Made by a program: the position numbers and the translations under genes
IMG/VR virus record: IMGVR_UViG_3300009964_000029
DNA: 27,181 nucleotides
Strand: one strand, 5' to 3'
Source of the DNA: a virus
Shown: piece after piece, positions 1,532-22,447 of the stretch
How the letters are laid out: each line of letters opens with the position of its first letter
Numbering within the stretch: the stretch's first letter is position 1
Notes under the pieces: generated by a model
The model's database searches: none
Seen by the model: only the letters and a program-made list of their open reading frames with translations
Told to the model about the DNA's origin: nothing

Positions 1532-1908
1532 GAGAGATTCTCCTCGTAAAATTTAGTGGCTTCCACTAAAAGCAGGTGAGCTACGTCATGCCCCTTGCGG
1601 GTTAGGGCCCATCGTTTGCAAGGCCGTCCGGTAGGGCTGAACCCTTTACGGTCTACCTCTTTTACGAGGCCGAGTTTGACAGCGTCAGCCCTGCGGGAGC
1701 GCAATCCCTGTTCCGTATCTTTGTGATATTGAGCGTTTTCATCGTAGATATCCCTGTCGGTGAAGCCCCGCTCGGAATAATAATGTTCTGTGAGTGCCCT
1801 CATTGAGTTGATGAGGTGCTGCATTTGATGTCGGGTGCGGACCGTTTGTGCGGCCCATTGGCTCGTGCGCGAGTCCGTAGACCGTGCTTTGGCGTTGGGG
1901 ATTTTCAT
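1528..1908 (-). CDS. putative winged-helix DNA-binding protein (126 aa)
   Basis: SD GAAAGGACAAACCG-ATG; basic region ...KLGLVKEVDRKGFSPTGRPCKRWALTRKG; function inferred weakly. Confidence 0.5.
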   Translation of the reverse strand: MKIPNAKARSTDSRTSQWAAQTVRTRHQMQHLINSMRALTEHYYSERGFTDRDIYDENAQYHKDTEQGLRSRRADAVKLGLVKEVDRKGFSPTGRPCKRWALTRKGHDVAHLLLVEATKFYEENLS

Positions 1909-1920
1909 CGGTTTGTCCTT

Positions 1921-2091
1921 TCAGTCTTTAATTTGGAGTGCGTACGAGAATGTGTAGCAGATGGTGAGTATTATCGCGAAGATTCGGCAGACGGTGTTCT
2001 GTCCGGTGAAAGAGGTTATGAGCATCGCGAAGAGGGAGACTGGTGTTGCTCCTGCGAGGAATGAGAGTATAAAATTTTTTGTCTCGTTCAT
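1921..2091 (-). CDS. small membrane protein (56 aa; missed by ORF track) immediately downstream of promoter copy 1
   Basis: ATG 2091 after conserved leader AAAGGACACTCAA; MNETKNFILSFLAGATPVSLFAMLITSFTGQNTVCRIFAIILTICYTFSYALQIKD. Confidence 0.5.
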   Translation of the reverse strand: MNETKNFILSFLAGATPVSLFAMLITSFTGQNTVCRIFAIILTICYTFSYALQIKD

Positions 2092-2131
2092 TTGAGTGTC
2101 CTTTCAGTTTGTTTTTTTGTTTGATATTAAT

Positions 2132-2160
2132 ATTATAGCATAGTGTAGTGATGATGTCCA
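2132..2160 (-). promoter_or_regulatory. early promoter copy 1 (TGGACA-17-TATAAT with TGn extended -10) plus conserved leader AAAGGACACTCAA
   Basis: -35 rc of tgtcca 2155-2160, -10 rc of attata 2132-2137; ~66-bp unit near-identical to copies at 4388-4453, 24944-24990, 26548-26596. Confidence 0.65.
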
Positions 2161-2196
2161 ATATTACGCTGAGAGAGAAAATTATTAGTGGCCAGT

Positions 2197-2418
2197 TTAT
2201 GACACGTCCTTTTCCGGTGTTTTAAGGGCTTTTTTCAGCTGCTTTCGCAGCCATTTAGCGGTTGGACGGTCGATGATCATGCTGTTACGGTGATTCGTGC
2301 ACGAATCATATATAAACTCGTTCAGATACAGGTGCTCGCCGTCCATACTGGTAGACAGGTGTATGCGAGCGATGTCATCGACTTCGTGCATGTCGCTGAT
2401 TGGTGTAAACGGTTTCAT
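2197..2418 (-). CDS. small protein (73 aa), D-x5-W-L-x3-L family paralog
   Basis: MKP... IIDRPTAKWLRKQLKK; ATGA overlap with upstream gene. Confidence 0.55.
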   Translation of the reverse strand: MKPFTPISDMHEVDDIARIHLSTSMDGEHLYLNEFIYDSCTNHRNSMIIDRPTAKWLRKQLKKALKTPEKDVS

Positions 2419-2663
2419 CGTTCTGTCGCCTCGCCTTCAAGCGCACTGTTTTTGATTGTGTCTACACTATGCTGGAGCTTGTCAGACAGCCATTCGGCGT
2501 CATCAACAGATAGCATGAGATTCGTTTCAAGCATGTTGTACGGAGTATTTATAATAATCTTGACGTACTTATCAAACGTGCCGATAGCTATGCTACTGGC
2601 TCCAGGCTGGTTGGGTGGGGTATAACGGTAGTCGCTGTATTCCTCATGTTTTGTCTTACTCAT
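2415..2663 (-). CDS. small protein (82 aa), D-x5-W-L-x3-L family paralog
   Basis: LMLSVDDAEWLSDKLQH; ATGA overlaps both neighbours. Confidence 0.55.
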   Translation of the reverse strand: MSKTKHEEYSDYRYTPPNQPGASSIAIGTFDKYVKIIINTPYNMLETNLMLSVDDAEWLSDKLQHSVDTIKNSALEGEATER

Positions 2664-2857
2664 TTCGTGTTTTCCTTTTCGGTGTTTTGAAGCGTTTCGA
2701 TCAGCCAGCGCAAGCTGTCGCGGTCGAGGATAAACGTGTTCTGCATGGTCCCGCGACCGTTTTCAAAGGTGAGGATAGTGTTCTCACCGTCGATTTCTAC
2801 GTACAGTTCTGTGCAAAAGTCGTCTATTTGCAGACCGTCAAGCAGTTTAGGTTTCAT
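2660..2857 (-). CDS. small protein (65 aa), D-x5-W-L-x3-L family paralog
   Basis: SD AAAGGATAGAATC-ATG; MKP... FILDRDSLRWLIETLQN. Confidence 0.55.
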   Translation of the reverse strand: MKPKLLDGLQIDDFCTELYVEIDGENTILTFENGRGTMQNTFILDRDSLRWLIETLQNTEKENTK

Positions 2858-2880
2858 GATTCTATCCTTTTTCTTTGCTA

Positions 2881-3327
2881 TTAAAAGTCGGGTTCACCGA
2901 ACTCACTATTGTTTTGCGGTGCTGCCCACGTGTCATCAGACTGTGACCACGACTGCTGCACGGACGTCGGCTGTGAGGGCTGCGAGGATGTGGGCTGCGT
3001 GTTTTTAGGCAGTATCCCTACCGCGGTAGCCCTACAGCGCAGTGCAGTGGCCTCATGGCCGTCCCGAGCCGTATACCAGCGTTGCTGCAACGTCCCAGTT
3101 ATGAGGAGCTTTGACCCTTTTTCTGCGGCTTGGATTTGGGCGGCCGTGTAATCCGCTGAGGCTTCTACGTCAATCCACATCGTGCCCTGGTCCACCCAAT
3201 TATTAGACTTATCAAAGTAGCCTTGGCTGACCGCGACCAGGATTGACGTGACGCTCCCGCCGCTGTTAAAATGGCGTGTTTCCGGGTCCCGCCTGGCGTT
3301 ACCGGTAAACGTAACTTGTACACTCAT
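2881..3327 (-). CDS. ssb: single-stranded DNA-binding protein (SSB)
   Basis: OB-fold N-terminus VTFTGNARRDPETRHFNSGGSVTSILVAVSQ resembles bacterial SSB; Q/S/P-rich linker; acidic C-terminal tip SEFGEPDF (DIPF-like). Confidence 0.8.
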   Translation of the reverse strand: MSVQVTFTGNARRDPETRHFNSGGSVTSILVAVSQGYFDKSNNWVDQGTMWIDVEASADYTAAQIQAAEKGSKLLITGTLQQRWYTARDGHEATALRCRATAVGILPKNTQPTSSQPSQPTSVQQSWSQSDDTWAAPQNNSEFGEPDF

Positions 3328-3470
3328 TTCGTGTCCTTCCTTTCATTGTTTTTCTGTTCCAGCTGGCGGCGTATATAGGCTTCCAACCGGCCGTTAACGT
3401 ATTTGTATACGAGGCGTGTTGTGCGGCCTGTATACCTACGTTTTTTGTAGGTTTCTATGAGAACTGTCAT
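3324..3470 (-). CDS. small highly basic protein (48 aa; missed by track)
   Basis: SD GGAGGTGGACGA-ATG at 3470; MTVLIETYKKRRYTGRTTRLVYKYVNGRLEAYIRRQLEQKNNERKDTK; ATGA overlap with ssb start. Confidence 0.4.
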   Translation of the reverse strand: MTVLIETYKKRRYTGRTTRLVYKYVNGRLEAYIRRQLEQKNNERKDTK

Positions 3471-3531
3471 TCGTCCACCTCCTTGAACCCGTAGCCCAGC
3501 AGGTCCTGCTGTCCGGTAAACGTTGCTTTAT

Positions 3532-3876
3532 TCATGAGAGGTCCCTTCCATACTCGTCTTGCATTTTGTTAATGTCCTGCTGGGTAACGTTGCGCTCGTC
3601 AGCGATTTTGAGACGTGCGTACCGTGTAGAGATTCCAAGCGTTTGGGCTATCTCTTCGGCTGTCAGTTTGTATTTTTCTTTGAAGTAGACGAGTTGGGCG
3701 AAACGGTGGAGTTTGTGGACGTCTTCGGGGTACACGTTCGGGTCGTCGCGTTTCATGACCCGGCGGAAAATATGCGGGTCGTTATTCGGGACGTATTTAA
3801 CGAAATAGTAATACGGTACGTTTGGTGTGCGGAGCGGGTTGGTGATGACCGCGCTTGCGGCTTTCTTTTTAATCAT
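3532..3876 (-). CDS. HTH DNA-binding protein (114 aa), possible early/middle transcription regulator
   Basis: SD GAAAGGAAAACATC-ATG; C-terminal HTH LTAEEIAQTLGISTRYARLKI. Confidence 0.5.
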   Translation of the reverse strand: MIKKKAASAVITNPLRTPNVPYYYFVKYVPNNDPHIFRRVMKRDDPNVYPEDVHKLHRFAQLVYFKEKYKLTAEEIAQTLGISTRYARLKIADERNVTQQDINKMQDEYGRDLS

Positions 3877-3902
3877 GATGTTTTCCTTTCAAAGAGTCTG
3901 GT

Positions 3903-3928
3903 GAGGGGCGGGCGGTTGCCCGCCCCTC
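3903..3928. other. perfect 11-bp GC-rich hairpin GAGGGGCGGGC-GGTT-GCCCGCCCCTC without U-tract
   Basis: between acidic protein gene and HTH gene. Confidence 0.5.
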
Positions 3929-3943
3929 TACTGGGTTCAGTTG

Positions 3944-4366
3944 TTAGTCTTCGTCCTCTTCTTCGTCGTCTTCGTCTGTTATGTAACGGTACGTGCAGTA
4001 TTCAGGCCCGCCGTTCGCTTCCTGATACGCTCTGATGAGCGTGTCGAGGTCGAGGTCGAGGTCGTACAGGTAGTGGTCACGGAGGAGGACAAGGTCGTTG
4101 TAGTCGATTTCTTCTGGTTCTTCGCCTGGCTTGGCGTTGTCGATAGCGTTCTGATTGGCTATGAACCGACGGCGGATACCGTTCGCAATATAGTATGTAG
4201 TCCCGTTGATGCGGGCGAATGCGTCGAGCATGCTTTCAAAGTCGTCTATGCGCTCGTAGCTGCTGACTGTTTCGTCTGCGAGTTCTTCGACGGGGATATC
4301 CCATGATTCGACTGGGATATGAGAGCTGGTTACCCTCTTTGTGAAGTGGATATGTGTGACTGTCAT
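3944..4366 (-). CDS. highly acidic protein (140 aa) with poly-D/E tail; DNA-mimic / anti-restriction candidate
   Basis: true start ATG 4366 after conserved leader GGAAAGGACACAATAAA (track start 4432 is a TTG inside promoter copy 2); ...DLDLDLDTLIRAYQEANGGPEYCTYRYITDEDDEEEDED. Confidence 0.55.
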   Translation of the reverse strand: MTVTHIHFTKRVTSSHIPVESWDIPVEELADETVSSYERIDDFESMLDAFARINGTTYYIANGIRRRFIANQNAIDNAKPGEEPEEIDYNDLVLLRDHYLYDLDLDLDTLIRAYQEANGGPEYCTYRYITDEDDEEEDED

Positions 4367-4402
4367 TTTATTGTGTCCTTTCCTTTTTTGTTTGATATTA
4401 TT

Positions 4403-4431
4403 ATTATAGCATAGTGTAGTGATGATGTCCA
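4403..4431 (-). promoter_or_regulatory. early promoter copy 2
   Basis: -10 4403-4408, -35 4426-4431, 17-bp spacer; drives acidic protein gene. Confidence 0.65.
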
Positions 4432-4456
4432 ATATTACGCTGAGAGAGAAAACTGT

Positions 4457-4762
4457 TTAGTATTTTTCACCATAGTGAGTAACGAACGCGCTGATAGCAC
4501 TGCACGCTATCCACTGGTAGAATAGTTGGCCTGTGCTGTCGGCTGGACGGTAGAAATTATACGCGAAAACAGTGAGGGCTGTTACCCACGGCGCTAAACA
4601 CCAGCCGCAAATCATGAGTTGTTCCCACCCACTGCTACTTTTTTTAAAGTGTTGTATCCACGATTCGCGGATTTTTTTCATTATCCCGTACGGCAGGTCC
4701 AGATAGCGCACGGCATAGTTAATATAGGCGCTGATGAAACTGATAATAATAATGTCTCGCAT
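4457..4762 (-). CDS. membrane protein, DUF1360-like (C-x-W-C-x-x-W motif)
   Basis: ICGWCLAPWVTALTVFAYNFY; 2-3 TM segments. Confidence 0.45.
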   Translation of the reverse strand: MRDIIIISFISAYINYAVRYLDLPYGIMKKIRESWIQHFKKSSSGWEQLMICGWCLAPWVTALTVFAYNFYRPADSTGQLFYQWIACSAISAFVTHYGEKY

Positions 4763-4776
4763 TTTGTCCCTAATTG

Positions 4777-4785
4777 TGGTATAAT
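4777..4785 (+). promoter_or_regulatory. extended -10 TGGTATAAT on + strand, 7 nt upstream of terminator hairpin: candidate promoter of ~45-nt antisense sRNA
   Basis: tgg 4777-4779, tataat 4780-4785; no clear -35. Confidence 0.25.
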
Positions 4786-4791
4786 ACGTGT

Positions 4792-4840
4792 AGGCTGTGT
4801 TCTTGTCCTTTCGCGCACAGCCTTTATTTTTTGTCTTTTT
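4792..4840 (+). terminator. intrinsic terminator oriented for + strand: AGGCTGTG-16 nt-CACAGCCT then TTATTTTTTGTCTTTTT
   Basis: perfect 8-bp stem plus T-run on + strand; antisense to early operon. Confidence 0.5.
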
Positions 4841-5372
4841 CCGTGTTCTCCTCGCTGTCTTTCTGACAGTATTCGATGATACGGCTTATCGCGGCGTTAA
4901 CATTTTTGATGTTGTGACAGTTAGCGGTGATCTTCCCGCACAAGTAGTCCATTTGGTGGCTGTTGTTTAGTGTCACGTCGTTCAACAGTTCATTGATATA
5001 CTCGATGTGGGCTGTCTTTTCCAGCCTGGCCTGGTATTGGGCGAGTATCATACGTGCGGCCTGCTGGACCGGGGTACCGTCCAACGGGATAGGCTTACCA
5101 TCAACTTTCATACCTAGTTCGTGTAACGGGCGGCCGGAGTACAAATATCCGAGTATAGCCGTATACAACCATACGTCTACCGTAGTTATTTGTTCTGGCT
5201 CCCAGCCGGCTTCTATCGCTACGATTGGGTTAGCGAAACCTCCGGCATACAATTCAACGAGCTTATCATACCCGTTCTGTCGGGCGGCTGACAGTAAACG
5301 GTAGTTATATTCACGTTCTGGACCGTCCCACGTATTCAAAAACAGTATTGAGGGGCTTGTAAAACCAGCCAT
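4824..5372 (-). CDS. hypothetical protein (182 aa)
   Basis: ATG 5372 preceded by AAGGCGGTCTTA (this SD-like sequence is also the 3' acceptor arm of the tRNA-like element); no recognisable domain. Confidence 0.6.
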   Translation of the reverse strand: MAGFTSPSILFLNTWDGPEREYNYRLLSAARQNGYDKLVELYAGGFANPIVAIEAGWEPEQITTVDVWLYTAILGYLYSGRPLHELGMKVDGKPIPLDGTPVQQAARMILAQYQARLEKTAHIEYINELLNDVTLNNSHQMDYLCGKITANCHNIKNVNAAISRIIEYCQKDSEENTEKDKK

Positions 5373-5376
5373 TAAG

Positions 5377-5448
5377 ACCGCCTTCCAAGACTTGCACTTG
5401 GGACCTCTACCATAGCTGGTAGCGCTCTATCTATTGAGCTAAAGGCGG
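5377..5448 (-). tRNA. tRNA-like cloverleaf, non-canonical (6-nt anticodon loop AGCTAT containing CTA); possible degenerate tRNA or mRNA-processing element
   Basis: minus-strand fold: acceptor CCGCCTT/AAGGCGG 7 bp perfect, U8 A9, D stem GCTC/GAGC, D loop AATAGATA, anticodon stem CTACC/GGTAG, variable AGGTC, T stem CCAAG/CTTGG, T loop TGCAAGT, discriminator T, no encoded CCA. Deviations: C1, no G19, no U33, G55. Confidence 0.4.
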
Positions 5449-5456
5449 AAACATCT

Positions 5457-5855
5457 TTAGAATAACACATTCTGCTGCTCATTGCAACCCTCCTGCAATT
5501 CACGTACATTTTCGCCCGTCTCACGATGCCACCACTGGGCAAACAGCGAACGGTGGCACAATTCTTTACGAATATCATCAAAACATAAGAGCACAAGCCG
5601 GTCGCACCCAGCAGAATCACAAATCTGCTGCAAATCTAAACGGACCCGCTCAACACCATAATCATTAAGCATACTCACATAATGCTGAGTAAACTCTTCA
5701 TCAGTACCTTCTAAAAACCAACGGCCGGGAGTCAACAAAAAACACTTATACTCCAAATCGTACGGCAAACGATAACGGGGAGCACTAAACGTAATCCGCA
5801 CAGGGACACCCTCAGAAGGCTTAAAATCACGATACCGATTCGTAAACAATAACAT
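5457..5855 (-). CDS. DUF488 family protein (YeaO-like)
   Basis: RYRDFKPSEG...APRY...DLEYK..LTP...LVLLCFDDIRKELCHRSLFAQWW resembles DUF488/YeaO; ATG 5855 with AAAGGA 9 nt upstream (track uses alternative TTG 5873 with GGGTGG SD). Confidence 0.55.
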   Translation of the reverse strand: MLLFTNRYRDFKPSEGVPVRITFSAPRYRLPYDLEYKCFLLTPGRWFLEGTDEEFTQHYVSMLNDYGVERVRLDLQQICDSAGCDRLVLLCFDDIRKELCHRSLFAQWWHRETGENVRELQEGCNEQQNVLF

Positions 5856-5899
5856 AACAATATATCCTTTCAACTATAACCACCCGACTTTTTAGGTGA

Positions 5900-5945
5900 T
5901 ATATTTATATTATAGTACACGGAGTAGACAAAAAACACAAGGAAA
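5900..5945 (-). promoter_or_regulatory. candidate leftward promoter for DUF488 operon (-10 TATAAT = rc of 5909-5914; weak -35)
   Basis: TATAAT on minus strand 41 nt upstream of TTG 5873; no good -35. Confidence 0.25.
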
Positions 5946-6024
5946 CCCAACCCACACAACAACCATATAACAAAAACCTATAACACAACACTCAACAACT
6001 AACAAAGAACAAGGAGAATAGAGT

Positions 6025-6108
6025 ATGTGGTTACCCTCTTCCCGCTCACCACCCAACTTAACGCTCTTTAACCCTCTTAATAAATTTCAACTTATCCACT
6101 TCACTTGA
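6025..6108 (+). CDS. 27-codon ORF with ideal SD (AAGGAG, 8-nt spacer) after CA-rich leader; possible micropeptide/leader peptide
   Basis: MWLPSSRSPPNLTLFNPLNKFQLIHFT; lies in 877-bp intergenic region. Confidence 0.2.
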   Translation: MWLPSSRSPPNLTLFNPLNKFQLIHFT

Positions 6109-6508
6109 TTCTTTTAGTTTGAGCTTGAGAGATACTTACCCCTTACTACACAACTAACATAGTCATGTCTTAAGGGGCAAAGTCTAAACGAAGGAACAAT
6201 AAGCAAGAACAAAACGGTAATCTTCACCGTCATCTCCTAGCCGTCGCCGTCGATTAAACTTAGATAGTGTCATTCTCTGTTAACTATCACAGCGGTAAAC
6301 TTGTGAGGGCACTTCCCAACAAATATGACCTTTGTATCGGAGCGTGTCGGCCAGCCCGTTTATGCCACGCCCAGCCTCACAATCTGTTAACGTTTCACCC
6401 TCTAACGGTGTTCACCCCGGGTTAGGGGGGGCAAGAATTTTATACAGCCCATCAACTTGCACATCAGGCTGTGTCGTATTATATGAGTAATTGTATCAAG
6501 CAATTATT

Positions 6509-6521
6509 ATAATTCAATATA
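6509..6521. repeat. 13-bp direct repeat ATAATTCAATATA copy 1 (candidate operator)
   Basis: exact 13-mer also at 6634-6646; the two flank the divergent promoter region. Confidence 0.5.
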
Positions 6522-6594
6522 ATTCTAGGTATTAAATTATGTATTAGTTATAGTGTAGCACACCCCCGTGACGAAAACAAACGAGACACACGAT

Positions 6595-6623
6595 TTGCAT
6601 TGTAGACAGAGTCGTGCTATACT
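6595..6623 (+). promoter_or_regulatory. rightward promoter TTGCAT-17-TATACT with TGn
   Basis: ttgcat 6595-6600, 17-bp spacer, tatact 6618-6623, tgc at 6615-6617; faces late genes. Confidence 0.45.
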
Positions 6624-6633
6624 GAATACTGTC

Positions 6634-6646
6634 ATAATTCAATATA
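6634..6646. repeat. 13-bp direct repeat ATAATTCAATATA copy 2
   Basis: exact match to 6509-6521, just downstream of predicted rightward TSS. Confidence 0.5.
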
Positions 6647-6674
6647 GTACTATGCACCCCGCCTGGAAGCCAAC

Positions 6675-6691
6675 CCCCGGACGGGGTTTTT
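6675..6691 (+). terminator. weak hairpin CCCC-GGAC-GGGG plus TTTTT between rightward promoter and first late gene (possible attenuator)
   Basis: 4-bp GC stem then 5 T. Confidence 0.3.
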
Positions 6692-6719
6692 AATAACCCC
6701 ATTTATCGAGTAAACGTGA

Positions 6720-6732
6720 TATAATATATAAT
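6720..6732 (+). promoter_or_regulatory. TATAAT hexamers (6720-6725, 6727-6732) abutting ATG 6733; leaderless-mRNA configuration
   Basis: no SD before ATG 6733; -10 ends 7 nt before start codon. Confidence 0.35.
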
Positions 6733-6930
6733 ATGGAACAAGAAACATACCTCACAGTCAAACAATTCGCCCAACTCATAAACACCCCCAAATACAACAT
6801 CTATAACTGGATATACGCAGGCAAACTACCTTACATCACCCTCACGGGCACCCACGCCATCAGAATCCCACTCAACAAAGCAATAACCCACCACCCCGCC
6901 ACCAAGCCAACAGAACAGGAAACACGATGA
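6733..6930 (+). CDS. HTH_17 (excisionase/MerR-like) DNA-binding protein, 65 aa; possible DNA-recognition part of small terminase
   Basis: LTVKQFAQLINTPKYNIYNWIYAGKLPYITLTGTHAIRIP matches HTH_17 pattern; ATGA overlap with next gene. Confidence 0.55.
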   Translation: MEQETYLTVKQFAQLINTPKYNIYNWIYAGKLPYITLTGTHAIRIPLNKAITHHPATKPTEQETR

Positions 6931-7319
6931 CAGAAAACCCTAAACCCCACCGCGACCCCAAAGGCCGCTTCCTCAAAAACACGCCCCCACCCAACCCCAC
7001 CGGAACAGGCGGATTCACCGACCACCCAGAACACCGCAACAACGGCCGATGGGACCACCACGCCAGCTACACATACAACCTCAACCGCTACAAAAACATG
7101 ACCAACAGCGAACTCGCCCAAGAAATCCAAAACATCGACAACCTCACCCAAGCAGAACAAACAGCCCTCCGCCTCATCATCGCATCAAAAAAAGAAAACG
7201 AACTCGCCTTCCGCAAATACCAAGACATCGCCGACCGAACAGAAGGACGCGCCCCCCAAACCATCAACCAAAACATCACCCAAACAGAACCCCCCCAAAT
7301 CAACATCACCTTCAAATAA
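6927..7319 (+). CDS. putative terminase small subunit
   Basis: N-terminal DPKGRFLKN...NPTGTGG resembles GRF.KGN..G TerS motif; coiled-coil segment; sits directly upstream of TerL. Confidence 0.45.
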   Translation: MTENPKPHRDPKGRFLKNTPPPNPTGTGGFTDHPEHRNNGRWDHHASYTYNLNRYKNMTNSELAQEIQNIDNLTQAEQTALRLIIASKKENELAFRKYQDIADRTEGRAPQTINQNITQTEPPQINITFK

Positions 7320-7341
7320 CCAACCGTAGCAGACGAAAAAC

Positions 7342-8616
7342 ATGGACTATATAATCCCCCAAGAATACGCCCCCCTCTTCTACTACACCCACCAACCATA
7401 CCCCGACTACCGATACTACGACTTCAGCGGAGGACGCTCCAGCGGCAAAAGCACCACCGTAGCACTCGCCATAACTCTCCAAGCAACCCAACAAAAAACC
7501 CGCATACTCTGCTGCCGCGAATACCAAAACAGCATCAAAGACAGCGTCAAAGCCCTCATAGAACAAATCATCACCGACAACCAACTCCCCGGATACACCA
7601 TACTCAACGACACAATCACCCACCAAAACGGCAGCCAATTCATCTTCAAAGGCCTCCACGACAACACCGAAGCCACCATAAAAAGCCTACACAACATCAA
7701 CATCTGCTGGGTCGAAGAAGCCCAAACCATCAGCAAACAAAGCCTCGACATACTCCTCCCCACCATCAGAACCCCCCACAGCATCATCATCTACACCAGA
7801 AACCCCCTCACCCCAACCGACGAAATCACCCTCCGACACGTCACCAACCCCACCCCAGAAACCGCAAAACGCACCTACCACAAACACGTCACCTACCGAA
7901 TACTCGAACGAGCAGGAATCCTCCCCACAGAAATCAAACACCAAATCAAAGAAGCCAAAAACACACCCGACTACAACCACATCTGGGAAGGCCAACCCAC
8001 ACAAAACCTCACCAACCAACTCATCACCTGGACCGAACTCACCCAAACCGAACACAACCCCCAACAAACAGGCGGCACAACCCTCGGCATAGACGTAGCC
8101 CGATACGGAAACGACCGCACCGCCATCGCCACCATACAAGGCAACACCCTAACAACCATCACCACCTGGCAACACGCCAGCATCACACAATCAGCACAAC
8201 GCATAAAAACCATATGCGGCACCCTCCCCAACCTCACCAGCATCAAAATCGACGACACCGGCGTCGGAGGCGGACTCACCGACATACTCACCGACATGCA
8301 CCTACCAGTCCAACCCATCAACTTCGGCAGCAAACCCACCCAACCCAAAAAATACGACACCACCATCAGCGAAATGTGGTTCACCTTCAAACAAAAACTC
8401 CCCACCATACGCATAAACCCCGAACTCACAACTAAGAACGAACTCTACACAGAACTCACCAACCGAGAATGGACCATCGACAACCAAAACCGTAGAGCCA
8501 TACAAAAAAAACGAGACTACAAACAGCAACAGCAAACAGGCAGCCCAGACCTCGCCGACGCAGTACTACTCGCATATTACCAACCCAAACGATTACATTG
8601 GAACGTTAGCGTATAA
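7342..8616 (+). CDS. terL: terminase large subunit (PBSX/XtmB-like, headful type)
   Basis: Walker A YYDFSGGRSSGKST as in PBSX-family TerL; size and position; extreme T/P/N/Q/H-rich composition. Confidence 0.85.
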   Translation: MDYIIPQEYAPLFYYTHQPYPDYRYYDFSGGRSSGKSTTVALAITLQATQQKTRILCCREYQNSIKDSVKALIEQIITDNQLPGYTILNDTITHQNGSQFIFKGLHDNTEATIKSLHNINICWVEEAQTISKQSLDILLPTIRTPHSIIIYTRNPLTPTDEITLRHVTNPTPETAKRTYHKHVTYRILERAGILPTEIKHQIKEAKNTPDYNHIWEGQPTQNLTNQLITWTELTQTEHNPQQTGGTTLGIDVARYGNDRTAIATIQGNTLTTITTWQHASITQSAQRIKTICGTLPNLTSIKIDDTGVGGGLTDILTDMHLPVQPINFGSKPTQPKKYDTTISEMWFTFKQKLPTIRINPELTTKNELYTELTNREWTIDNQNRRAIQKKRDYKQQQQTGSPDLADAVLLAYYQPKRLHWNVSV

Positions 8617-8656
8617 TAAACAGTAACAACCATAACAGCAGAACAAGGAACCTTTT

Positions 8657-10816
8657 ATGAGCCGTTTCACTAACTGGATACGCAGAACATTCACCAACAC
8701 ACCACCAGTATCGAATCCGCTCACCACGAACTGGATGTACGGCAACCAGAACATAGGAACAGACAGCGACACATACGATAACCTGTTCCCATATATTAAC
8801 AGTATCAGCCAACGATTCGCCACAATACGCCCCTACGCTACCAGTGACGGCACAACCCCCCTCAACCCGCAGCCCGTAGCCATGCAAGCACTCTACCGGC
8901 CAAACAACATGATGAGCGGCCGAGAATTCCTCTACACCATCAGCAGTAGCATACTCACCCAAACGCACTTGGATATTCTCGTCTGGACATCAACCCCCTA
9001 CGGCGTGCAACCAGGCGGCCAGATAACATCTGACAATATTATTGGTTACACGATACTCCCCCCACAGTCACGTCAATATTCGAGTAACATGACGGACTGG
9101 ACCTACCAAGTCACCATGGCTGATAACACTACACACACATTCACCCGTAGTGAGGTTCTCAGCCTCACCTATAGCCACCATCCAGCAGACCTGACCGTTG
9201 GTATCAGTCCAGCAATGACCGTCAGCAAGTGGGCCACCGTAGACGACATGATAGCCGACTACCAGCGAGGATTCTTCAGTAACGGTGCAATACCCGCCGG
9301 AATGATGAGCATCACCGCTGAAAACAGTGACGACTACACTCACACTAAAGACCGGTTGGAACACGCCTTCCAAGGAGCAGCAAACACCAACAGTATTGTC
9401 TACAATATGCGCCCCATCGACCCTGCAACCGGCACCCCCAGCACACAAGAAAAACTCACCTGGACACCATTCCAACAACCCAACAACACCCTCGACATTA
9501 ATACAATAAACAGTATCGTCTCCACCAAACTCGCTGGAGCAATAAACGTACCAGACATTATCCGAGGCATAGACCACGGACAAACCTACAGCAACGCACA
9601 AACCGCAGAACGAGCATTCACCGAAAACACACTCGACCCACTGTGCGCTCTCGTGTGGGATAAATTCCAATTCGAACTCGACCGTATAACAGGAGGCCTC
9701 GACTACGCTATAACCTACCAACTCGAACTACCTGTACAGTCAGATATCGAACACGTGCAAGCGGAAACACAGCAGATACAAACACAAACGTTTATCAGCC
9801 TGGTACAAGCCGGCGCAACACCTGAACAGGCTGCAAGCGCTCTTAACCTTCCTGACACGTATCGGGACATCACTCTCACCCCAAACCCTGAACCGGAACC
9901 AGAACCAGAACCGGAACCAAACCCAGTCACGGAACCACCGGAACCCCCAACCCTGGAACCCTCACCGGTCTCAACACTGGTCTCAACCAGGAGCAGTAAA
10001 CAACCCAACCCCAAACCCGAAACAGCCAGCCAAAAACTCCACACAACCAGCAGGAAACTCCTCCACACCCTCACCCGAATAGCCCAACGCCACCCTAACG
10101 CTCTCACCAACAATGAGACTACAGAACTCGACAATGCCGCCAACACGTGGATAGCCAGCAGCATCAGCATACTCACAGCGATTATGCTCACCCACGCCGA
10201 AACTACGGGCAGGGATATCATCAAGCAAACCCTTAGCGCTGCCGAATCCAACCCAACCCTGAAACAAACCCTCACCAGTATGAGCGCAGACACAATCAAG
10301 GCTCTCTACACGTGGAACCAGCTACCAGACAACGTACTCACTATGTACCGGCAGCACTTGCAGCACGCTATCAAACAGTACGTGGATTACCATTACCAGC
10401 AGATACAGGATATTCTCGCTCAGGCAGCCATCGAACAGTGGCCCGCTCCACAACTGTCGGACGCGCTCAACCAGTACTGCGACGGGCAGGCAAGCCAAAT
10501 GATAGCCGAAAACGAAACAACCCACAGTCAACGGTTAGCAGGATTGTACGCCGCAGAAAACATCACCCGGCATGTGAACGGAATCACCATTAGCAAACAG
10601 TGGAAAACTACGAGCAAACACCCGTGCCCCTTCTGCGAGCATATGGACGGAACTACCATACCCATCACAAGCAGTTTTATGCAGGAAGGAGACAGCATCA
10701 CCATTAACGACACGACCTATGGTAACGATTACGAAGACAAGATAGTAGCGGACGGGCATCCAAACTGCCGGTGCGTGCTCCTCTACCACGTAGAAAGCGA
10801 AAGCGTGAACGTATGA
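8657..10816 (+). CDS. portal protein fused to C-terminal MuF/SPP1 gp7-like head morphogenesis domain
   Basis: 719 aa; PE-repeat linker TPNPEPEPEPEPEPNP; C-terminus CPFCEH...HPNCRCVLL typical of MuF/gp7 family. Confidence 0.7.
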   Translation: MSRFTNWIRRTFTNTPPVSNPLTTNWMYGNQNIGTDSDTYDNLFPYINSISQRFATIRPYATSDGTTPLNPQPVAMQALYRPNNMMSGREFLYTISSSILTQTHLDILVWTSTPYGVQPGGQITSDNIIGYTILPPQSRQYSSNMTDWTYQVTMADNTTHTFTRSEVLSLTYSHHPADLTVGISPAMTVSKWATVDDMIADYQRGFFSNGAIPAGMMSITAENSDDYTHTKDRLEHAFQGAANTNSIVYNMRPIDPATGTPSTQEKLTWTPFQQPNNTLDINTINSIVSTKLAGAINVPDIIRGIDHGQTYSNAQTAERAFTENTLDPLCALVWDKFQFELDRITGGLDYAITYQLELPVQSDIEHVQAETQQIQTQTFISLVQAGATPEQAASALNLPDTYRDITLTPNPEPEPEPEPEPNPVTEPPEPPTLEPSPVSTLVSTRSSKQPNPKPETASQKLHTTSRKLLHTLTRIAQRHPNALTNNETTELDNAANTWIASSISILTAIMLTHAETTGRDIIKQTLSAAESNPTLKQTLTSMSADTIKALYTWNQLPDNVLTMYRQHLQHAIKQYVDYHYQQIQDILAQAAIEQWPAPQLSDALNQYCDGQASQMIAENETTHSQRLAGLYAAENITRHVNGITISKQWKTTSKHPCPFCEHMDGTTIPITSSFMQEGDSITINDTTYGNDYEDKIVADGHPNCRCVLLYHVESESVNV
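9888..9926 (+). repeat. hexanucleotide (gaaccr) repeat encoding (PE)n linker in portal
   Basis: cctgaaccggaaccagaaccagaaccggaaccaaaccca. Confidence 0.7.
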
Positions 10817-11001
10817 TAATCCGCTGCTCTAAGTGTGGCCGGTTCCTTGGTGAAAACCACCAGCCCACCATCATTATGCTTAAATGTCCTAACTGCCACT
10901 CATACAGCGAATACAAACTCAAACCCCTCACCACTCATGGTATACTAGAGTTTAAGCCCACCATGAGCGTTGTAAACGCGGGCCACGCAGAAACACACTA
11001 A
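10813..11001 (+). CDS. Com-like Cys4 zinc-ribbon protein (62 aa)
   Basis: ATG 10813 overlaps portal stop (ATGA); MIIRCSKCGRFLGENHQPTIIMLKCPNCHSY aligns with Mu Com IRCKHCNKLL...IEIRCPRCKRHI (C-x2-C-x17-C-x2-C). Confidence 0.5.
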   Translation: MIIRCSKCGRFLGENHQPTIIMLKCPNCHSYSEYKLKPLTTHGILEFKPTMSVVNAGHAETH

Positions 11002-11011
11002 AGGAGAGAAC

Positions 11012-12844
11012 TTGTCCTACCGTAAACAGTTCACCGCTCACACAACACCCAGTAGCGATGACGAGGGATACACCCTCCAATTCCTAGCGAACAGTGGAAC
11101 CGTTATGCAAGACAACGGATACACAGTAGACCTGGACACGCTACTCGTCCCCATACAGGACGGTGAAATGCGCCTCGTGAACCAGCTTGAAGACACAGAC
11201 ACGCTTAGTATCCCGCTTCTACTCGACCATGACATGAGCGTTAACAGTCAAGCTGGTGTCATACGCAGACTCTGGGTAGACGAGGACGGGCTGCACGCTG
11301 AAGCACGGTTAAGCCACGTACCCAGCGGCGAACTAGTCCGACAACTCGCCCTGGACGGGGCCCTCACCAGCAGTTTCAGTATCACTATCGACACACCAAC
11401 ATCTCCCGGTAACGACAAAATCATACACGACAGTCAACTCGTGGAAATCAGCGTCGTGTATCGTGGAGCAGACTATAAAACAGCTTTCACTAGTATTAAC
11501 AGTAAAGGAGACCATACAGTGGAAACAATTGAAAACAAGCTCAACAGCGATGAGAACAAAACCCTGACAGACGCTATCGAGCAGGCCACGCAGGCTATTC
11601 AGCAGGCTGTGGACAAGCTTACCGACGATACAGATAAGCCAGACGATAAGCCGGCCGATACAGATAAGCCAGACGATAAGCCGGCCGATACAAAGCCTGT
11701 ACCACCGGTACAGAACAGCCATCAGCCACAGTTCAACAAAGCTAACACTACCGTCACACAGGCATACACGGCCAGCAGCCGCACGTATCTCGACAGTAAA
11801 CAGGCCATGAACGACTACGCTAACCTCCTGTTCAACAGCCGAAACGATGACCCACAGGCCATACACGAGGAATGGGCCGCTTACGCTCGTAAGAAGCTCG
11901 GTATGCAGTCCTACGCTTCCACTGTTAGCGGCGCAGACTATCTCATACCAACAGGTGTTGTTACGAAGATAGAAGACGTGTTGAACACAGCCGGTTCGGG
12001 TATCTGGCAGGCTGTCAACCACACAGGCATGGACGCTCCTATCACTTTGACTGCTAACATGCTCGGCCTGGACAGTGACGATGGTCGTGCCCACGGGTAT
12101 CCAGTCAGCGAGTACGGGAACAGTAAGAAGCAGGAGAAAATCCAGCTTAAGAAACGCCAGTTTGTTACAGACTACGTATATAAGTATCTCCCCGTACCGA
12201 AGGGCGAACTGAGGCGTACCATGCAGAACCCACAGGTCCTGCTGAACTATATCCTCCAGGAGCTTCCGGCACGTCTTATTCAGACAATGGAACGCGCTAT
12301 CGTTATGAACACTGATTGGACTGACCTGACGATGTTTAAGTCAGTGTACGCAGATTCGCTTCAGACTGATGCGGCTGCTGGGGCGGAAACGATAGCAGGC
12401 CAGCGGTTTGCTGCACAGTACACACCAGCTAACAACGAGACACTGTTGGAATCGTTTATCGCTGCTAACGCTCTTGTTACAGCTGAAGGGGACAGGATAC
12501 TGGTCACCAGTCGTGAGAACGCTGCCAAGATGAAACTCGCTAAAGGTTCCGACGGACAGTTCCAGGCACCCCTGGGCGCTGACTATGCGGGCCTTATCGG
12601 CGTGTCTAAGATTGTCACCCCGGAATGGTGGAACGCGACTGACAGTAAGAACGCTCAGGGTGTTATCTTCGTCCCGTCCGCTTACAACGTGTACGGTGAT
12701 GATGGTATCCAGGCGTTCACGAACTTCAAACTGGAAACCAACGAGAATCAGTTCCTTCAGGAAATTTTCACTGGTGGCGGTTTGGCTAAGCTCAAGTCTG
12801 GTGTTGTTGTGAAACCGGCAGCAGCTGCTCCGGCTGGCCACTAA
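11012..12844 (+). CDS. prohead protease (S78-like) - scaffold/linker - HK97-fold major capsid protein fusion
   Basis: TTG start after AAAGGAGAG; N-terminus LLLDHD...GLHAEARL...DGALTSSFSITI...EISVVYRGADYKTAF resembles HK97 prohead protease; tandem DTDKPDDKPA linker; C-terminal MCP-like. Confidence 0.7.
   Translation: MSYRKQFTAHTTPSSDDEGYTLQFLANSGTVMQDNGYTVDLDTLLVPIQDGEMRLVNQLEDTDTLSIPLLLDHDMSVNSQAGVIRRLWVDEDGLHAEARLSHVPSGELVRQLALDGALTSSFSITIDTPTSPGNDKIIHDSQLVEISVVYRGADYKTAFTSINSKGDHTVETIENKLNSDENKTLTDAIEQATQAIQQAVDKLTDDTDKPDDKPADTDKPDDKPADTKPVPPVQNSHQPQFNKANTTVTQAYTASSRTYLDSKQAMNDYANLLFNSRNDDPQAIHEEWAAYARKKLGMQSYASTVSGADYLIPTGVVTKIEDVLNTAGSGIWQAVNHTGMDAPITLTANMLGLDSDDGRAHGYPVSEYGNSKKQEKIQLKKRQFVTDYVYKYLPVPKGELRRTMQNPQVLLNYILQELPARLIQTMERAIVMNTDWTDLTMFKSVYADSLQTDAAAGAETIAGQRFAAQYTPANNETLLESFIAANALVTAEGDRILVTSRENAAKMKLAKGSDGQFQAPLGADYAGLIGVSKIVTPEWWNATDSKNAQGVIFVPSAYNVYGDDGIQAFTNFKLETNENQFLQEIFTGGGLAKLKSGVVVKPAAAAPAGH
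11627..11686 (+). repeat. 30-bp tandem repeat x2 in capsid-fusion linker
   Basis: gatacagataagccagacgataagccggcc x2 (DTDKPDDKPA x2). Confidence 0.75.
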
Positions 12845-12861
12845 AACAGAATATTAACTGT

Positions 12862-12920
12862 GAGCGGGTATAGCCTTGCGTATCGAAAATACGGACGAGG
12901 GCTGCCCGCTCCTTTTTGTT
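12862..12920 (+). terminator. rho-independent terminator after capsid gene
   Basis: GAGCGGG...CCCGCTC outer stem with inner CGTAT-CGAAA-ATACG hairpin, followed by CTTTTTGTT. Confidence 0.6.
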
Positions 12921-12952
12921 AAACAGGAATAGTAGACAGAACGAGGAATGTA

Positions 12953-13579
12953 ATGTTTCTTCATAAAGCAGACCGGCCGCTCCTCACGGCGATACCAGAC
13001 AGTCTTCTCAACGATTTAGAACAGTTAGCCCTCAGCATGGTAAACAGTATGCTGTGTGAGAGCATACAGGAACAGCGGGAACGTGAGTATCATCTACCAG
13101 TTCAAGGGAATATTATCCTGTTTCCTGGTTGGGCTTCTGGAACGGTTACCGTACTCGTGGACGGGCAGCCAGTGTCTACGTCGCATGATGATACGGAATA
13201 CTATAAGCTGGTGTACTGTCAGCAGCCTGACGGCACAGTGGCCACGGTACGAGGCATGTTCGGGTTCAAGTATCTTCCTGCTCCGCTGCTGCTTGTCGTG
13301 GAAAAACTGGTGCGTTTGGCGTACGATAACCTCGACGATGACATGGTTGGCGAGGTTTCCTCGAAAAAGATAGAGGACGTGCAGGTCAACTATCTTTCTA
13401 CCGTGCAGCCTATCCTGCAACGGGTTTTAAACGAGTACAGGAGCGTCCTATTGCGGTGGAGCGTTTGCGCAGACAGGTATGGGATTGGAACGTTGAGTAT
13501 GCCACACCATAAGTATTATCCACCGTATCAGGTGAACCCAGCTGACTGGGGAACGGGGGTGGTGTATGGCCGACGCTAA
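12953..13579 (+). CDS. head-tail connector / head completion protein (gp6/gp15-like)
   Basis: position after capsid; N-terminal LLTAIPDSLLNDLEQLALSMVNSML pattern. Confidence 0.4.
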   Translation: MFLHKADRPLLTAIPDSLLNDLEQLALSMVNSMLCESIQEQREREYHLPVQGNIILFPGWASGTVTVLVDGQPVSTSHDDTEYYKLVYCQQPDGTVATVRGMFGFKYLPAPLLLVVEKLVRLAYDNLDDDMVGEVSSKKIEDVQVNYLSTVQPILQRVLNEYRSVLLRWSVCADRYGIGTLSMPHHKYYPPYQVNPADWGTGVVYGRR

Positions 13580-13946
13580 CCCGTTCCGACTATTCCCCCG
13601 CCAGGTTCGGACAGTGAGTTTGATAACCCTGCCTAAAGCAGTGACAGCGAAGGGCCGTGAGGAAACCGTGCTCACAGACAGTCTACGTGTTATTGTGAAA
13701 CATAAATACAATAGTAGTGTGAACGGGCTTGTAGAGACGGTTCCTGGTCTCCTGTCCATACATATTGACGTGAGCAGTTTGCCGGAACCCTACAAGTCGG
13801 ATTGTGTGAGGCTGGTGGATACGTGTATTAAAATCGGGGGCCGTAACTACCGGTGCAGAGACGTTTCACAGGGTGATGACATGGATAGGGGAGTAACACA
13901 GTTCATTACTGTCCAGGCAGTCCCGTGGGCGAGGATAACATTATGA
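13566..13946 (+). CDS. head-tail adaptor / head closure protein
   Basis: size, synteny. Confidence 0.35.
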   Translation: MADANPFRLFPRQVRTVSLITLPKAVTAKGREETVLTDSLRVIVKHKYNSSVNGLVETVPGLLSIHIDVSSLPEPYKSDCVRLVDTCIKIGGRNYRCRDVSQGDDMDRGVTQFITVQAVPWARITL

Positions 13947-14278
13947 ACACGCGAATAACATACAGTATGCATGTTTCCGGAGACTGGCAGACAGCAACCA
14001 GGGATAGTATGGCAGCCGGGCTAACCAGGGTGGCGATGGCTATCCGGAACCAGGCCGTCATCAACGCTCCTATCCGAACCGGCGCACTTAAAAACAGTGG
14101 GCGTGTCCAGTACGTAAACTGGCATGAACAGCACGTAATATTCGGTAGCAAGCGTGTTCCATATGCGGAGCTAAGGGAACGGGTAAACCATTTGCACCCA
14201 TCAACAACACACTATTTGGAGCGTGCCGGTAAAACAGTAGAAGCGAACGTTAACATGTATTTTCAGGGAAGGATATAA
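13943..14278 (+). CDS. HK97 gp10-like tail component
   Basis: ATG 13943 (GAGGA SD, ATGA overlap); AMAIRNQAVINAPIRTGALKNSGRVQ matches gp10-family motif. Confidence 0.55.
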   Translation: MNTRITYSMHVSGDWQTATRDSMAAGLTRVAMAIRNQAVINAPIRTGALKNSGRVQYVNWHEQHVIFGSKRVPYAELRERVNHLHPSTTHYLERAGKTVEANVNMYFQGRI

Positions 14279-14281
14279 TAA

Positions 14282-14698
14282 ATGCTTGGTTTAGCTGTGG
14301 CACAGGAACTCGAACGAGCAGGATTCGGCACGTATGGTGAAACTATTTATTATGGTATCAGCCCTATCTTGGCTGACGGTACACCAACCGGAAACGACTG
14401 CCTGTGGGTGAACTCGAACACGGTCGGCGTGTCTGGTGACCTATACACAGACACAGTGACCATAAGCACGCGGTTTGATGACCCCTTCGAACAGGACAAA
14501 ACACTTCTTAAACTGTGTGAGTGGGTGCGTAGCAACCAGACGTGTATCCTGTCATGTAAACCAATCGCTGATATCAGTTTTCAGCATTGTGAGATACAGC
14601 CACCAGCCACGGTGAATTTCAGTGCGGTGGACGATAACGGCCGGTTTGTTAAAGAACTGGTTTTCCCGGTACGCTACAAACTACCAGCGCGATTCTAA
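14282..14698 (+). CDS. tail terminator / tail completion protein (DUF3168-like)
   Basis: synteny before MTP; loose motif similarity. Confidence 0.4.
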   Translation: MLGLAVAQELERAGFGTYGETIYYGISPILADGTPTGNDCLWVNSNTVGVSGDLYTDTVTISTRFDDPFEQDKTLLKLCEWVRSNQTCILSCKPIADISFQHCEIQPPATVNFSAVDDNGRFVKELVFPVRYKLPARF

Positions 14699-14775
14699 TG
14701 GTATACTGATAGTAAGCCTTTTTCCGCAGTTCGTGGGGAGAGGCGATGAATATCGATATTTTTTAAGGAGGCCTC

Positions 14776-15363: not shown

Positions 15364-15388
15364 ACAACAGGAATGAAAGGAGCTTCTT

Positions 15389-15733: not shown

Positions 15734-15752
15734 AATCACGAGAGGGGCGCGT

Positions 15753-16118: not shown

Positions 16119-16122
16119 GCTC

Positions 16123-18993: not shown

Positions 18994-19009
18994 ACAGGAG
19001 GCAACAGAT

Positions 19010-22442: not shown

Positions 22443-22447
22443 TACAT

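Follow-up and report, generated by a model that had tools for sequence, protein, structure and literature searches.

The subject of this study is a stretch of extreme A+C richness on the + strand of a viral genome, the IMG/VR record IMGVR_UViG_3300009964_000029, the whole of which (27,181 nt) is referred to below as the window. The two ends of the window overlap directly by 127 nt (1-127 = 27055-27181). This indicates a circularised assembly, and the window thus holds a genome in its entire length of 27,054 bp, either circular or circularly permuted. From a hub at 5874-6732 the early genes extend to the left, among them those for a DUF488-family protein, a single-strand DNA-binding protein (SSB), an Erf-like annealase and a RecE/YqaJ-like exonuclease, the last three of which provide the phage with a single-strand DNA toolkit of its own. 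Late genes run rightward between 6733 and 23828 and comprise an HTH_17 gene, a small-terminase-like (TerS-like) gene, the large terminase gene TerL (Terminase_3), a portal-Mu F-like gene, a protease-capsid gene, tail genes and an endolysin gene. The hub measures 859 bp rather than the 877 bp given in an earlier reading of the window that was made from its letters without database searches (hereafter the sequence-only reading).

Megablast searches with positions 5000-13000 and 13000-27181 against annotated phages returned no matches, and relatives surfaced only in protein-level searches. The nearest cultured ones are the Bifidobacterium phages BlindUri1 and BlindBasel1, with 54% identity in TerL and 49% in the capsid protein. 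Weaker relatives of TerL were found in Arthrobacter genomes, and a homolog of the DUF488 protein in Actinomadura. An actinobacterial host is therefore likely.

The A+C-rich island covers positions 5451 to 11875, as judged by segmentation, block shuffling and sliding windows. In a maximum-likelihood two-state segmentation its mean A+C content on the + strand was 0.666, compared to 0.450 elsewhere (log-likelihood gain of ~461), and the excursion of the cumulative skew amounted to 2152, far above the 454 ± 97 (maximum 814) obtained in 2000 block shuffles. The change-points anticipated in the sequence-only reading are thus significant, but the island end that it placed at 8700 is only the end of an inner plateau (6752-8551, A+C 0.766), and a second tier of ~0.63 A+C carries the island on to ~11.9 kb. 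The skew declines in steps, the tiers measuring ~1.8 kb and then ~3 kb. Overall, the + strand contains 69.1% A+C in 5450-8700, 43.7% in 1-5449 and 48.7% from 8701 to the end. Most of the sample counts in the sequence-only reading could be reproduced, namely 7561-7620 exactly (A24 C24 G5 T7, 80%), 5941-6000 at 86.7% for an estimated 87%, 17761-17820 at 38% and 2461-2520 at 53%. For 6961-7020 we counted 73% instead of about 71%, and 4141-4200, which had been put at 50-55%, contains only 45% A+C.

The gene-by-gene profile is clearest at 4-fold degenerate sites, here always read on the + strand. Their A+C content is 0.93 in the HTH_17 (excisionase-like) gene (6733-6930), 0.96 in the TerS-like gene (6927-7319) and 0.98 in TerL (7342-8616; A47 C134 G0 T4), all three of which are encoded by the + strand. 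It falls to 0.72 in the portal gene fused to a Mu F-like domain (8657-10816, + strand), which forms the second tier, and to 0.48 in the + strand gene for the prohead protease fused to the major capsid protein (11012-12844). The tail and lysis genes (15389-23828, + strand) represent a mirror-image zone that is G+T-rich, with values of 0.21-0.38 and, in the tape-measure gene, counts of A38 C58 G173 T180. The early minus-strand genes show 0.29-0.55. Third codon positions as a whole are 95-100% A+C from 6733 to ~8420, stay at ~0.7 through the portal gene and reach background at 11.5-12 kb. This drop takes place inside the protease-capsid gene, at ~11.5-11.9 kb near a repetitive interdomain linker, and it occurs at the matching position in three related contigs (L174-L176). 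In the clade baseline, as represented by BlindUri1, coding strands contain ~55-57% A+C in both orientations. The genome departs from this baseline in two places, with the packaging end of the late operon shifted to A+C and the tail end to G+T, while the early genes lie on it. The late operon is thereby a two-ended gradient on one strand, running from 98% A+C to ~79% G+T, and the related contig L006 has the same shape. The G+C content of the plateau, at 0.50-0.54, is not lowered.

The island is compositional and not a repeat array, as there is no dominant repeated k-mer in it and a single G4-type run, on the - strand. Chi sequences (that of E. coli and others) are not enriched in either orientation. 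We found no comparable local skew described in the literature on phage strand asymmetry.

That the bias is a property of the DNA strand and not of codon choice, as the sequence-only reading had held, is borne out by several observations. The DUF488-family gene forms the left shoulder of the island (5457-5873, - strand). It has a 4-fold A+C content of 0.80 on the + strand (A26 C15 G8 T2), and its third positions, read on the + strand, climb from 0.63 to 0.85 A+C toward the hub. Its coding strand is accordingly G+T-rich, the mirror image of the neighbouring genes, with opposite codon endings. The identification of this gene, already proposed from the sequence, proved correct: it has a PHROG match at 2.6e-13, the Actinomadura homolog is named DUF488, and 12 of the 19 substitutions that separate the window from contig L001 fall at its own third codon positions. 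The shift is not limited to third positions but affects codon positions 1 and 2 as well. The bias also extends to non-coding DNA, since the spacer next to DUF488 (5874-6060) has an A+C content of 0.74-0.77 and is nearly pure A/C on the + strand at ~5900-6060. It evolves via indels and is therefore regarded as unconstrained, although part of it may be 5' coding sequence of DUF488 in relatives with longer proteins. The opposite codon endings of DUF488, the shifts at positions 1 and 2 and in amino acids, and the involvement of non-coding DNA all speak against translational selection on codon usage.

The encoded proteins have been drawn along in opposite directions. K, N, T, Q, H and P make up 42% of TerL versus 29% in its homologs (range 24-36% among 118 homologs), and relative to the consensus TerL has gained 25 and lost 9 of these residues. 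Threonine alone accounts for 14%, and the terminase is rich in threonine, glutamine and isoleucine. The excess that the sequence-only reading had seen was thus confirmed by the comparison with homologs, but its statement that V, G, F and W are almost absent was overstated, as these residues still amount to 10.6%, compared to 16.5% in homologs. Conversely, G, V, W, F, L and C make up 38-42% of the DUF488 protein in this lineage versus 24-35% in full-length homologs at no more than 59% identity. The amino-acid shifts of TerL and DUF488 are mirror images of each other.

In mid-island the skew dips at the hub core (6100-6470, ~370 nt), which is non-coding and unskewed. In a seven-lineage alignment this core is nearly invariant, even in comparison with L172 and L173, which are 13-17% different elsewhere, while its flanks vary; it contains ~3-fold fewer variable sites than its neighbours. 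The dip is therefore explained by constraint and not by an absence of pressure. At first sight, the lack of skew in the hub seemed to speak against a pressure acting continuously over the region, an idea that was dropped in view of the alignment. The core belongs to no Rfam family, and the idea of a structured RNA was likewise rejected, because folding was not significant relative to shuffles on either strand (z-scores of -0.76 and -1.74). Its function may lie at the level of the DNA, for example as an origin or an operator array. To the right of the core, an AT-rich segment of 138 bp (6471-6610) holds the best promoter-like matches of the hub. It is present only in the window and L001, and is identical between them despite a difference of ~6.7% elsewhere. 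It is missing from the other five lineages, where a different insertion, ~55 nt long, lies right before the HTH promoter.

An extended -10 element, TGATATAAT, lies at 6717-6725, only 7 nt ahead of the ATG of the HTH gene (6733), and is conserved in all lineages. Judged by this spacing, the HTH-TerS-TerL operon appears to be expressed from the candidate promoter as a leaderless transcript. The plateau starts at the extended -10 and HTH start (6717-6735, + strand) and ends ~100-200 bp ahead of the TerL stop codon. Within it, conservation among five genomes reaches 92-100% invariance in the central part of the TerS-like gene (~6960-7260) and extends to silent sites, far exceeding that of the flanking coding sequence. 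From its position and this DNA-level conservation, the centre of the TerS-like gene is probably the pac site.

The island is heritable, and its edges are conserved wherever contigs reach them. It is shared by seven more contigs of the lineage that stem from other assemblies, one of them identical and six diverged by 7-17%: L170 is 100% identical to positions 6462-11655 of the window, and L001 and L171-L176 are the diverged ones. In the contigs that reach the relevant parts, A+C is 0.73-0.81 in the plateau and 0.60-0.72 in the tier, and returns to ~0.5 at the equivalent of 11.9-12.4 kb in the window. A sequencing or alignment artefact, which the sequence-only reading had left as a possibility, is thus refuted by the same profile in independent assemblies. 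On the left, the edge coincides with the 3' end of DUF488, and L172 and L173 keep it there despite a different neighbouring gene; on the right, L174-L176 show no change in the position of the edge. Contig ends were considered as physical genome ends, and this was rejected because the breaks fall at the strain-specific 138-bp insertion and at the repetitive linker and because the window assembles as a circle. That linker (11580-11700, between protease and capsid) encodes a repetitive peptide rich in D, K, P, A and T, with DKPDDKPADT units, and shows a 30-bp indel among lineages. The end of L170 at 11655 is probably an assembly break at the linker repeat.

Immediately beyond the left edge, a tRNA-like sequence with a CTA anticodon-like loop was noticed by eye at 5375-5450 (- strand). 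ARAGORN and Rfam called no tRNA or RNA family in the window, so that this element does not qualify as a callable tRNA. Besides the window, L174 carries it, with a different anticodon-arm region, and it is absent from L172 and L173, where a 66-aa gene stands in place of the tRNA-like element and a DAM-like gene. As these two contigs keep the same edge, the terminus-type edge is independent of the tRNA-like element, at which one proposal of the sequence-only reading had placed the terminus. The DAM-like gene of the window (4824-5372, - strand) encodes a 182-aa protein that corresponds to only part of a 472-aa DAM-like and GNAT fusion in L174 (1232-2650), which is followed there by a ParB_N protein. 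Judging by these gene contents, the cassette left of DUF488 is a variable, mosaic slot.

Beyond the immediate lineage, TerL third-position A+C was clearly raised only in the clade with at least 45% TerL identity, as found across 169 loci. It reaches 0.83 in L006, 0.76-0.79 in L016, L017 and L039, 0.72 in L007 and ~0.70 in L009-L012 and L027. Relatives at this level of identity mostly show weaker versions of the island, and more distant TerL loci have values of 0.21-0.62 and flat profiles. In L006 the edges are sharp, with steps from 0.38 to 0.80 on the left and from 0.83 to 0.47 at the TerL/portal junction.

To examine the substitution spectrum, singletons at 4-fold sites were polarised in five genomes. 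In the portal tier (8421-11500), transitions toward A/C occurred at 0.283 and those away from A/C at 0.124 (p=9e-4), and the predicted equilibrium of 0.70 is close to the observed 0.72. The bias is reversed in the middle and tail part of the late operon (11501-18654), with 0.227 toward G/T and 0.125 away from it (p=2e-4). In the plateau (6733-8420), transitions away from A/C were reduced to 0.023 versus 0.124 in the tier (p=3.5e-5), the rate toward A/C not being measurable there, and A<->C transversions amounted to 0.178 per site in plateau and tier alike. An independent comparison of three lineages gave the same picture for the plateau. Each zone is at its own substitution equilibrium, and the island is therefore maintained in place and is not a foreign relic. 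In L009-L012 and L027, which are mildly skewed, the singletons were near equilibrium and uninformative. In the spacer, polarised transitions amounted to 6/43 toward A/C versus 4/90 away (p=0.08). An apparent ongoing change toward A/C in the left shoulder, suggested by 19 versus 6 differences between the window and L001, was discarded when polarisation with an outgroup showed mostly C>T in the window lineage and no significant bias.

The equilibrium bears directly on mosaic import, another cause offered in the sequence-only reading, by which a packaging module from a phage of other replication sense or composition would have kept the skew of its donor. Such an import would agree with the sharp compositional edges at module junctions, of which L006 provides the example, with the differences between lineages in the genes left of DUF488, and with the clustering of assembly breaks at 5471, ~6040-6460 and 11655. 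However, only 5 'away' transitions were observed in the plateau, where ~26 would be expected of a decaying relic (p=3.5e-5). Both the island and its edges are found again in the related contigs, and the window and L001 are evenly diverged on both sides of the edges. No donor of comparable skew was found among 2404 TerL hits, 205 portal hits and 168 fetched loci, where L006 (0.83) was the strongest other case, and a donor of opposite replication sense would in any case bring a skew of ordinary size and not one of 98%. Mosaic acquisition is largely refuted by these findings, and we regard it as very improbable.

Outside the plateau, transitions are biased 1.93-fold toward the locally favoured bases (p=1e-6), whereas transversions that cross between the two alphabets (G<->C and A<->T) are unbiased (13/370 versus 31/850, a ratio of 0.96; 26 expected under equal fixation bias, P=0.004). 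In the tier alone, such transversions amounted to 3/92 into A/C versus 12/242 in the other direction. G:C>T:A changes are strand-asymmetric in the tier, with C>A at 0.195 and G>T at 0.042 (p=0.011). Selection for A/C predicts neither of these observations and is therefore disfavoured outside the plateau, while strand-specific damage or error predicts both. It should be noted that this contrast between transitions and transversions covers the zones outside the plateau, as only 2/215 4-fold sites in the plateau are G or T, and that the plateau numbers fit a transition asymmetry of ~40- to 130-fold or a fixation bias S of ~3-4 per site alike. By parsimony, the plateau would represent the same mutational process in intensified form.

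These data were also used to weigh selection on the nucleic acid itself, in which G and T would be selected against on the sense strand of the operon and the weaker tiers would be ordinary mutational skew. The benefit could be a structure-free mRNA, a transcript without the U or G needed by many endoribonucleases, or palindrome-free DNA. This view would account for the position of the plateau, which spans the conserved extended -10 and leaderless start to near the TerL end. It would also account for the weak folding of the + sense RNA there (-13.4 versus ~-41 kcal/mol per 150 nt elsewhere) and for 6-mer palindromes being ~6-fold rarer (2.4/kb versus 13-15/kb). That A>G and C>T are suppressed while A<->C remains free fits S of ~3-4 per site as well as it fits mutation. 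However, the minus-strand DUF488 gene and the spacer share the bias of the physical strand, and their transcript would be G/U-rich. Moreover, transversion routes into A/C are not favoured where this could be assessed, and G:C>T:A is strand-asymmetric. A value of S ~4 at each of ~560 silent sites, in a gene needed at low abundance, would exceed typical translational selection, and the capsid gene has no such bias. Selection of this kind is therefore considered unlikely, although it deserves to be kept in mind.

The presence of the candidate pac site inside TerS, at the head of the plateau, raises the question whether processes at chromosome ends could replace fork polarity in the explanation. 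In this scheme, the ends of headful-packaged chromosomes would lie mostly to the right of pac, and either of two routes could bias the same strand, less strongly with each step away from pac. One route would be resection in the 5'->3' direction by the exonuclease of the phage, the 3' tails of the - strand then priming recombination-dependent replication to the left. Another would be strand-directed repair of G/T mismatches in the heteroduplex formed by annealed terminally redundant ends. The stepwise tiers of ~1.8 kb and ~3 kb, and the encoded RecE/YqaJ-like exonuclease, Erf and SSB, would all suit such a process. The polarity is right as well, the - strand being the 3'-ended strand at the left end, and island length varies between relatives as terminal redundancy or the length of a packaging series would. 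The mismatch range of NucS would also make a repair bias transition-specific (PMC8228993). Nevertheless, symmetric resection would be expected to expose both strands across the redundancy, so that its effects should cancel instead of producing a skew. The skew is also present 0.4-1.6 kb to the left of the candidate pac site, in DUF488 and the spacer, and the unlowered G+C content of the plateau is contrary to heavy deamination of both strands. On balance, a pac-anchored origin of the island appears rather doubtful.

Transcription-associated mutation was considered as well. In this case, heavy leftward antisense transcription over the packaging genes, together with the leftward transcription of DUF488, would leave the - strand as the exposed, deaminated non-template strand, C>T and A>G on the non-template strand being the standard signature of transcription-associated mutation. 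The signature suits DUF488 and the tail genes, whose coding strands are G+T-rich, and the skew of DUF488 falls from 5' to 3' along its own transcript. Near the right edge of the island, the - strand has weak promoter-like sites (11499-11472 and 11447-11420), but none was found on it at the right edge of the plateau. Antisense transcription, for which no role is known, would need to exceed late sense transcription by a large factor, and the early minus-strand genes show no effect. Furthermore, measured transcription-associated asymmetries are a few-fold. We therefore regard this explanation as improbable.

We favour the view that a strand-asymmetric mutation bias, linked to replication or single-strandedness and amplified over the packaging operon, creates and holds the island, and assign to it a probability of roughly 0.5. 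On the + strand, G>A and T>C outpace their reverses, which corresponds to C>T and A>G on the - strand, i.e. to changes of the deamination type as expected for a single-stranded strand or a lagging-strand template. An additional excess of C>A (G>T on the - strand) accompanies them. The bias of ~2.3-fold in the tier at ~8.4-11.9 kb and the reversed bias of ~1.8-fold toward G/T beyond ~11.9 kb would then represent ordinary lagging/leading asymmetry. Forks, or an equivalent exposure of single strands, would proceed leftward from ~11.9 kb until halted at a fixed position, 5450, and would traverse the remaining circle rightward, and in the skew analysis the switches near 11.9 kb and at 5450 look like those of an origin and a terminus, respectively. 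Over the HTH-TerS-TerL operon (6733 to ~8500), the bias would be amplified to ~40-fold or more, thereby stripping G and T from every freely changeable site. This operon, with its candidate pac site, would be transcribed head-on to the leftward forks, and the amplification would imply a much longer period there than elsewhere in which the - strand is exposed, damaged or goes without repair. Either head-on collision or pac-anchored end resection and heteroduplex repair, involving the phage exonuclease and Erf, may prolong this exposure, although the effects known for such processes are far smaller. A local leading/lagging inversion, the first cause named in the sequence-only reading, would thus fit in size and sign for the tier at 8.4-11.9 kb (2.3-fold) and for the distal late genes (1.8-fold), but not for a plateau of ~40-fold or greater. 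Prolonged single-strandedness of one strand, which that reading had also mentioned, appears compatible with the spectrum.

Several points weigh against this interpretation. The two sign switches (5451 and ~11.9 kb) lack recognisable origin or terminus features, and the origin-type switch lies within the protease-capsid gene at a domain linker. The plateau bias of ~40- to 130-fold is far beyond any measured replication-strand asymmetry and is unexplained, and selection at the RNA level is possible within the plateau, from the candidate transcription start to near the TerL end. The argument from gene orientation is thin, as it rests on one minus-strand gene plus ~180 bp. Since the coding strand of DUF488 resembles the tail genes in its G+T content, the island could in principle consist of two unrelated effects. 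Polarised changes in the left shoulder show no significant direction (9/129 toward versus 14/304 away, p=0.35), and the early genes have no clear leading-strand bias beyond the clade baseline. Head-on mutagenesis is itself debated (PMC7451550, PMC8510543), and PMC8510543 argues against a contribution in E. coli. Lastly, the placement of the island varies among relatives, which is awkward for a fixed origin: the island of L039 is 11 kb long, that of L006 breaks off abruptly at the TerL/portal junction, and in L035, L027 and L051 a skewed block of ~1 kb lies upstream of TerS and not in the terminase. In these three contigs (TerL identity ~45-53%) the most skewed block, with 0.65-0.76 A+C, is located at 4561-5349, 8748-9520 and 7167-7950, respectively, and spans a RusA-like gene together with two small genes, one for a membrane protein and one for an HTH-like protein, all of which lie directly upstream of TerS.

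A more far-reaching version of the mutational explanation is that the packaging operon spends much of the life cycle with one strand unpaired or uniquely unrepaired. It would then be a position-specific hypermutation domain, of a new kind in a double-stranded DNA virus, which we put forward only as a speculative and rather unlikely idea. Candidates for such a state are a stable displacement loop, head-on forks stalled at pac, and strand-directed mismatch correction in annealed terminal repeats. If this were true, the local mutation asymmetry would be 40-fold or more and would exceed that of mitochondrial DNA. The phage may by now benefit from the by-products themselves, a terminase mRNA free of structure and a packaging end whose DNA lacks palindromes. 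Most probably the island is mutational, ordinary in kind, as a skew of the replication or single-strand type, and extraordinary in its local intensity and sharpness.

Irrespective of its cause, the island has consequences for gene annotation. The + sense RNA of the plateau is nearly structureless, and stop codons are depleted on both strands. As a result, six antisense open reading frames (ORFs) of at least 100 aa are found between 6831 and 8429, in agreement with the spurious antisense ORFs that the sequence-only reading had described, and in three related contigs such ORFs have displaced the TerL call. The automated calls for L174 (4500-5800), L175 (1306-2577) and L176 (1192-2463) omit TerL and give antisense ORFs of 99-244 aa instead. 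According to tblastn, TerL is intact in L175 and L176, and in L174 it is split between two frames, which may reflect a frameshift or an assembly error. Because gene callers had omitted TerL in the related contigs, the protein search with TerL gave one close relative only. Searches based on the terminase, and phage annotation in general, will thus silently miss such genomes.

As a rule, strand skew traces replication only weakly and across the whole genome. This tailed phage has a stretch of 1.8 kb with 98% A+C at silent sites, conserved edges and a reversal of sign. If the skew is mutational, the sequence records which strand was exposed, and where, in replication, recombination or packaging. 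It also shows that local mutation pressure can reshape an essential protein, as in TerL with its 14% threonine, without destroying it.

Of the known systems with which the island can be compared, the replichores of bacterial chromosomes are the closest in size and sign of the weaker zones. In Corynebacterium glutamicum, an actinobacterium of the NucS type, the leading strand gains G and T (A>G at 0.84 versus T>C at 0.22, and C>T at 1.04 versus G>A at 0.57), with leading/lagging asymmetries of 1.8-3.8-fold (PMC6159521). The actinobacterial NucS acts on G-T, G-G and T-T mismatches and not on A-C (PMC8228993). The portal tier (2.3-fold) and the distal late genes (1.8-fold) of the phage share the sign and size of this skew, and the island, like a replichore pattern, has two switch points, one of origin type and one of terminus type. 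Unlike in replichores, however, a mere 6.4 kb of the 27-kb circle separates these switches, neither of them is at a recognisable origin or terminus, and the plateau is more than an order of magnitude stronger.

The footprint of DNA polymerase I (Pol I) downstream of the ColE1 plasmid origin likewise consists of mutations specific to one strand, which become fewer with distance from a fixed point of initiation over more than 1.3 kb (PMC3167613). There, too, the initiation site adjoins a non-coding control region, but the footprint was measured with an engineered error-prone polymerase, whereas the skew of the phage is natural composition. Rightward low-fidelity synthesis of the + strand from the phage hub would be expected to enrich G and T on the C. 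glutamicum spectrum, which is the wrong sign. Error-prone + strand synthesis from an origin in the hub, combined with mismatch repair limited to G/T, was for this reason rejected as a candidate, the measured actinobacterial spectrum giving the opposite sign.

Mutagenesis by head-on conflicts between replication and transcription is described in PMC7451550 as confined to the transcription unit that opposes the fork. The plateau would relate to the leftward forks in the same way. The effects of head-on conflicts are a few-fold at most, and we know of nothing near a 40-fold effect or a 98% compositional skew that has been described for them.

A further analogy is found in animal mitochondria. Their asymmetry is attributed to a deamination mechanism that depends on the time spent single-stranded, and 4-fold sites of the vertebrate L strand typically contain 80-88% A+C, a level that the phage plateau surpasses. 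To our knowledge, strand-displacement replication is not known for phages of this type. The L strand of animal mitochondrial DNA is A+C-rich and the H strand G+T-rich, and the strand-asymmetric mutation is tied mainly to replication (PMC1794132, PMC4182315). In contrast to the mitochondrial case, the effect in the phage is local (1.8 kb in its extreme part and 6.4 kb in total), is located in the genome of a double-stranded tailed phage and flips its sign along the strand. As in mitochondria, the sense strand of the island is A+C-rich, most strongly so at 4-fold sites, and protein and codon composition have been dragged along. Outside the plateau, the phage moreover shows the transition-driven bias that is typical of mitochondria, with 1.93-fold for transitions against a transversion ratio of 0.96.

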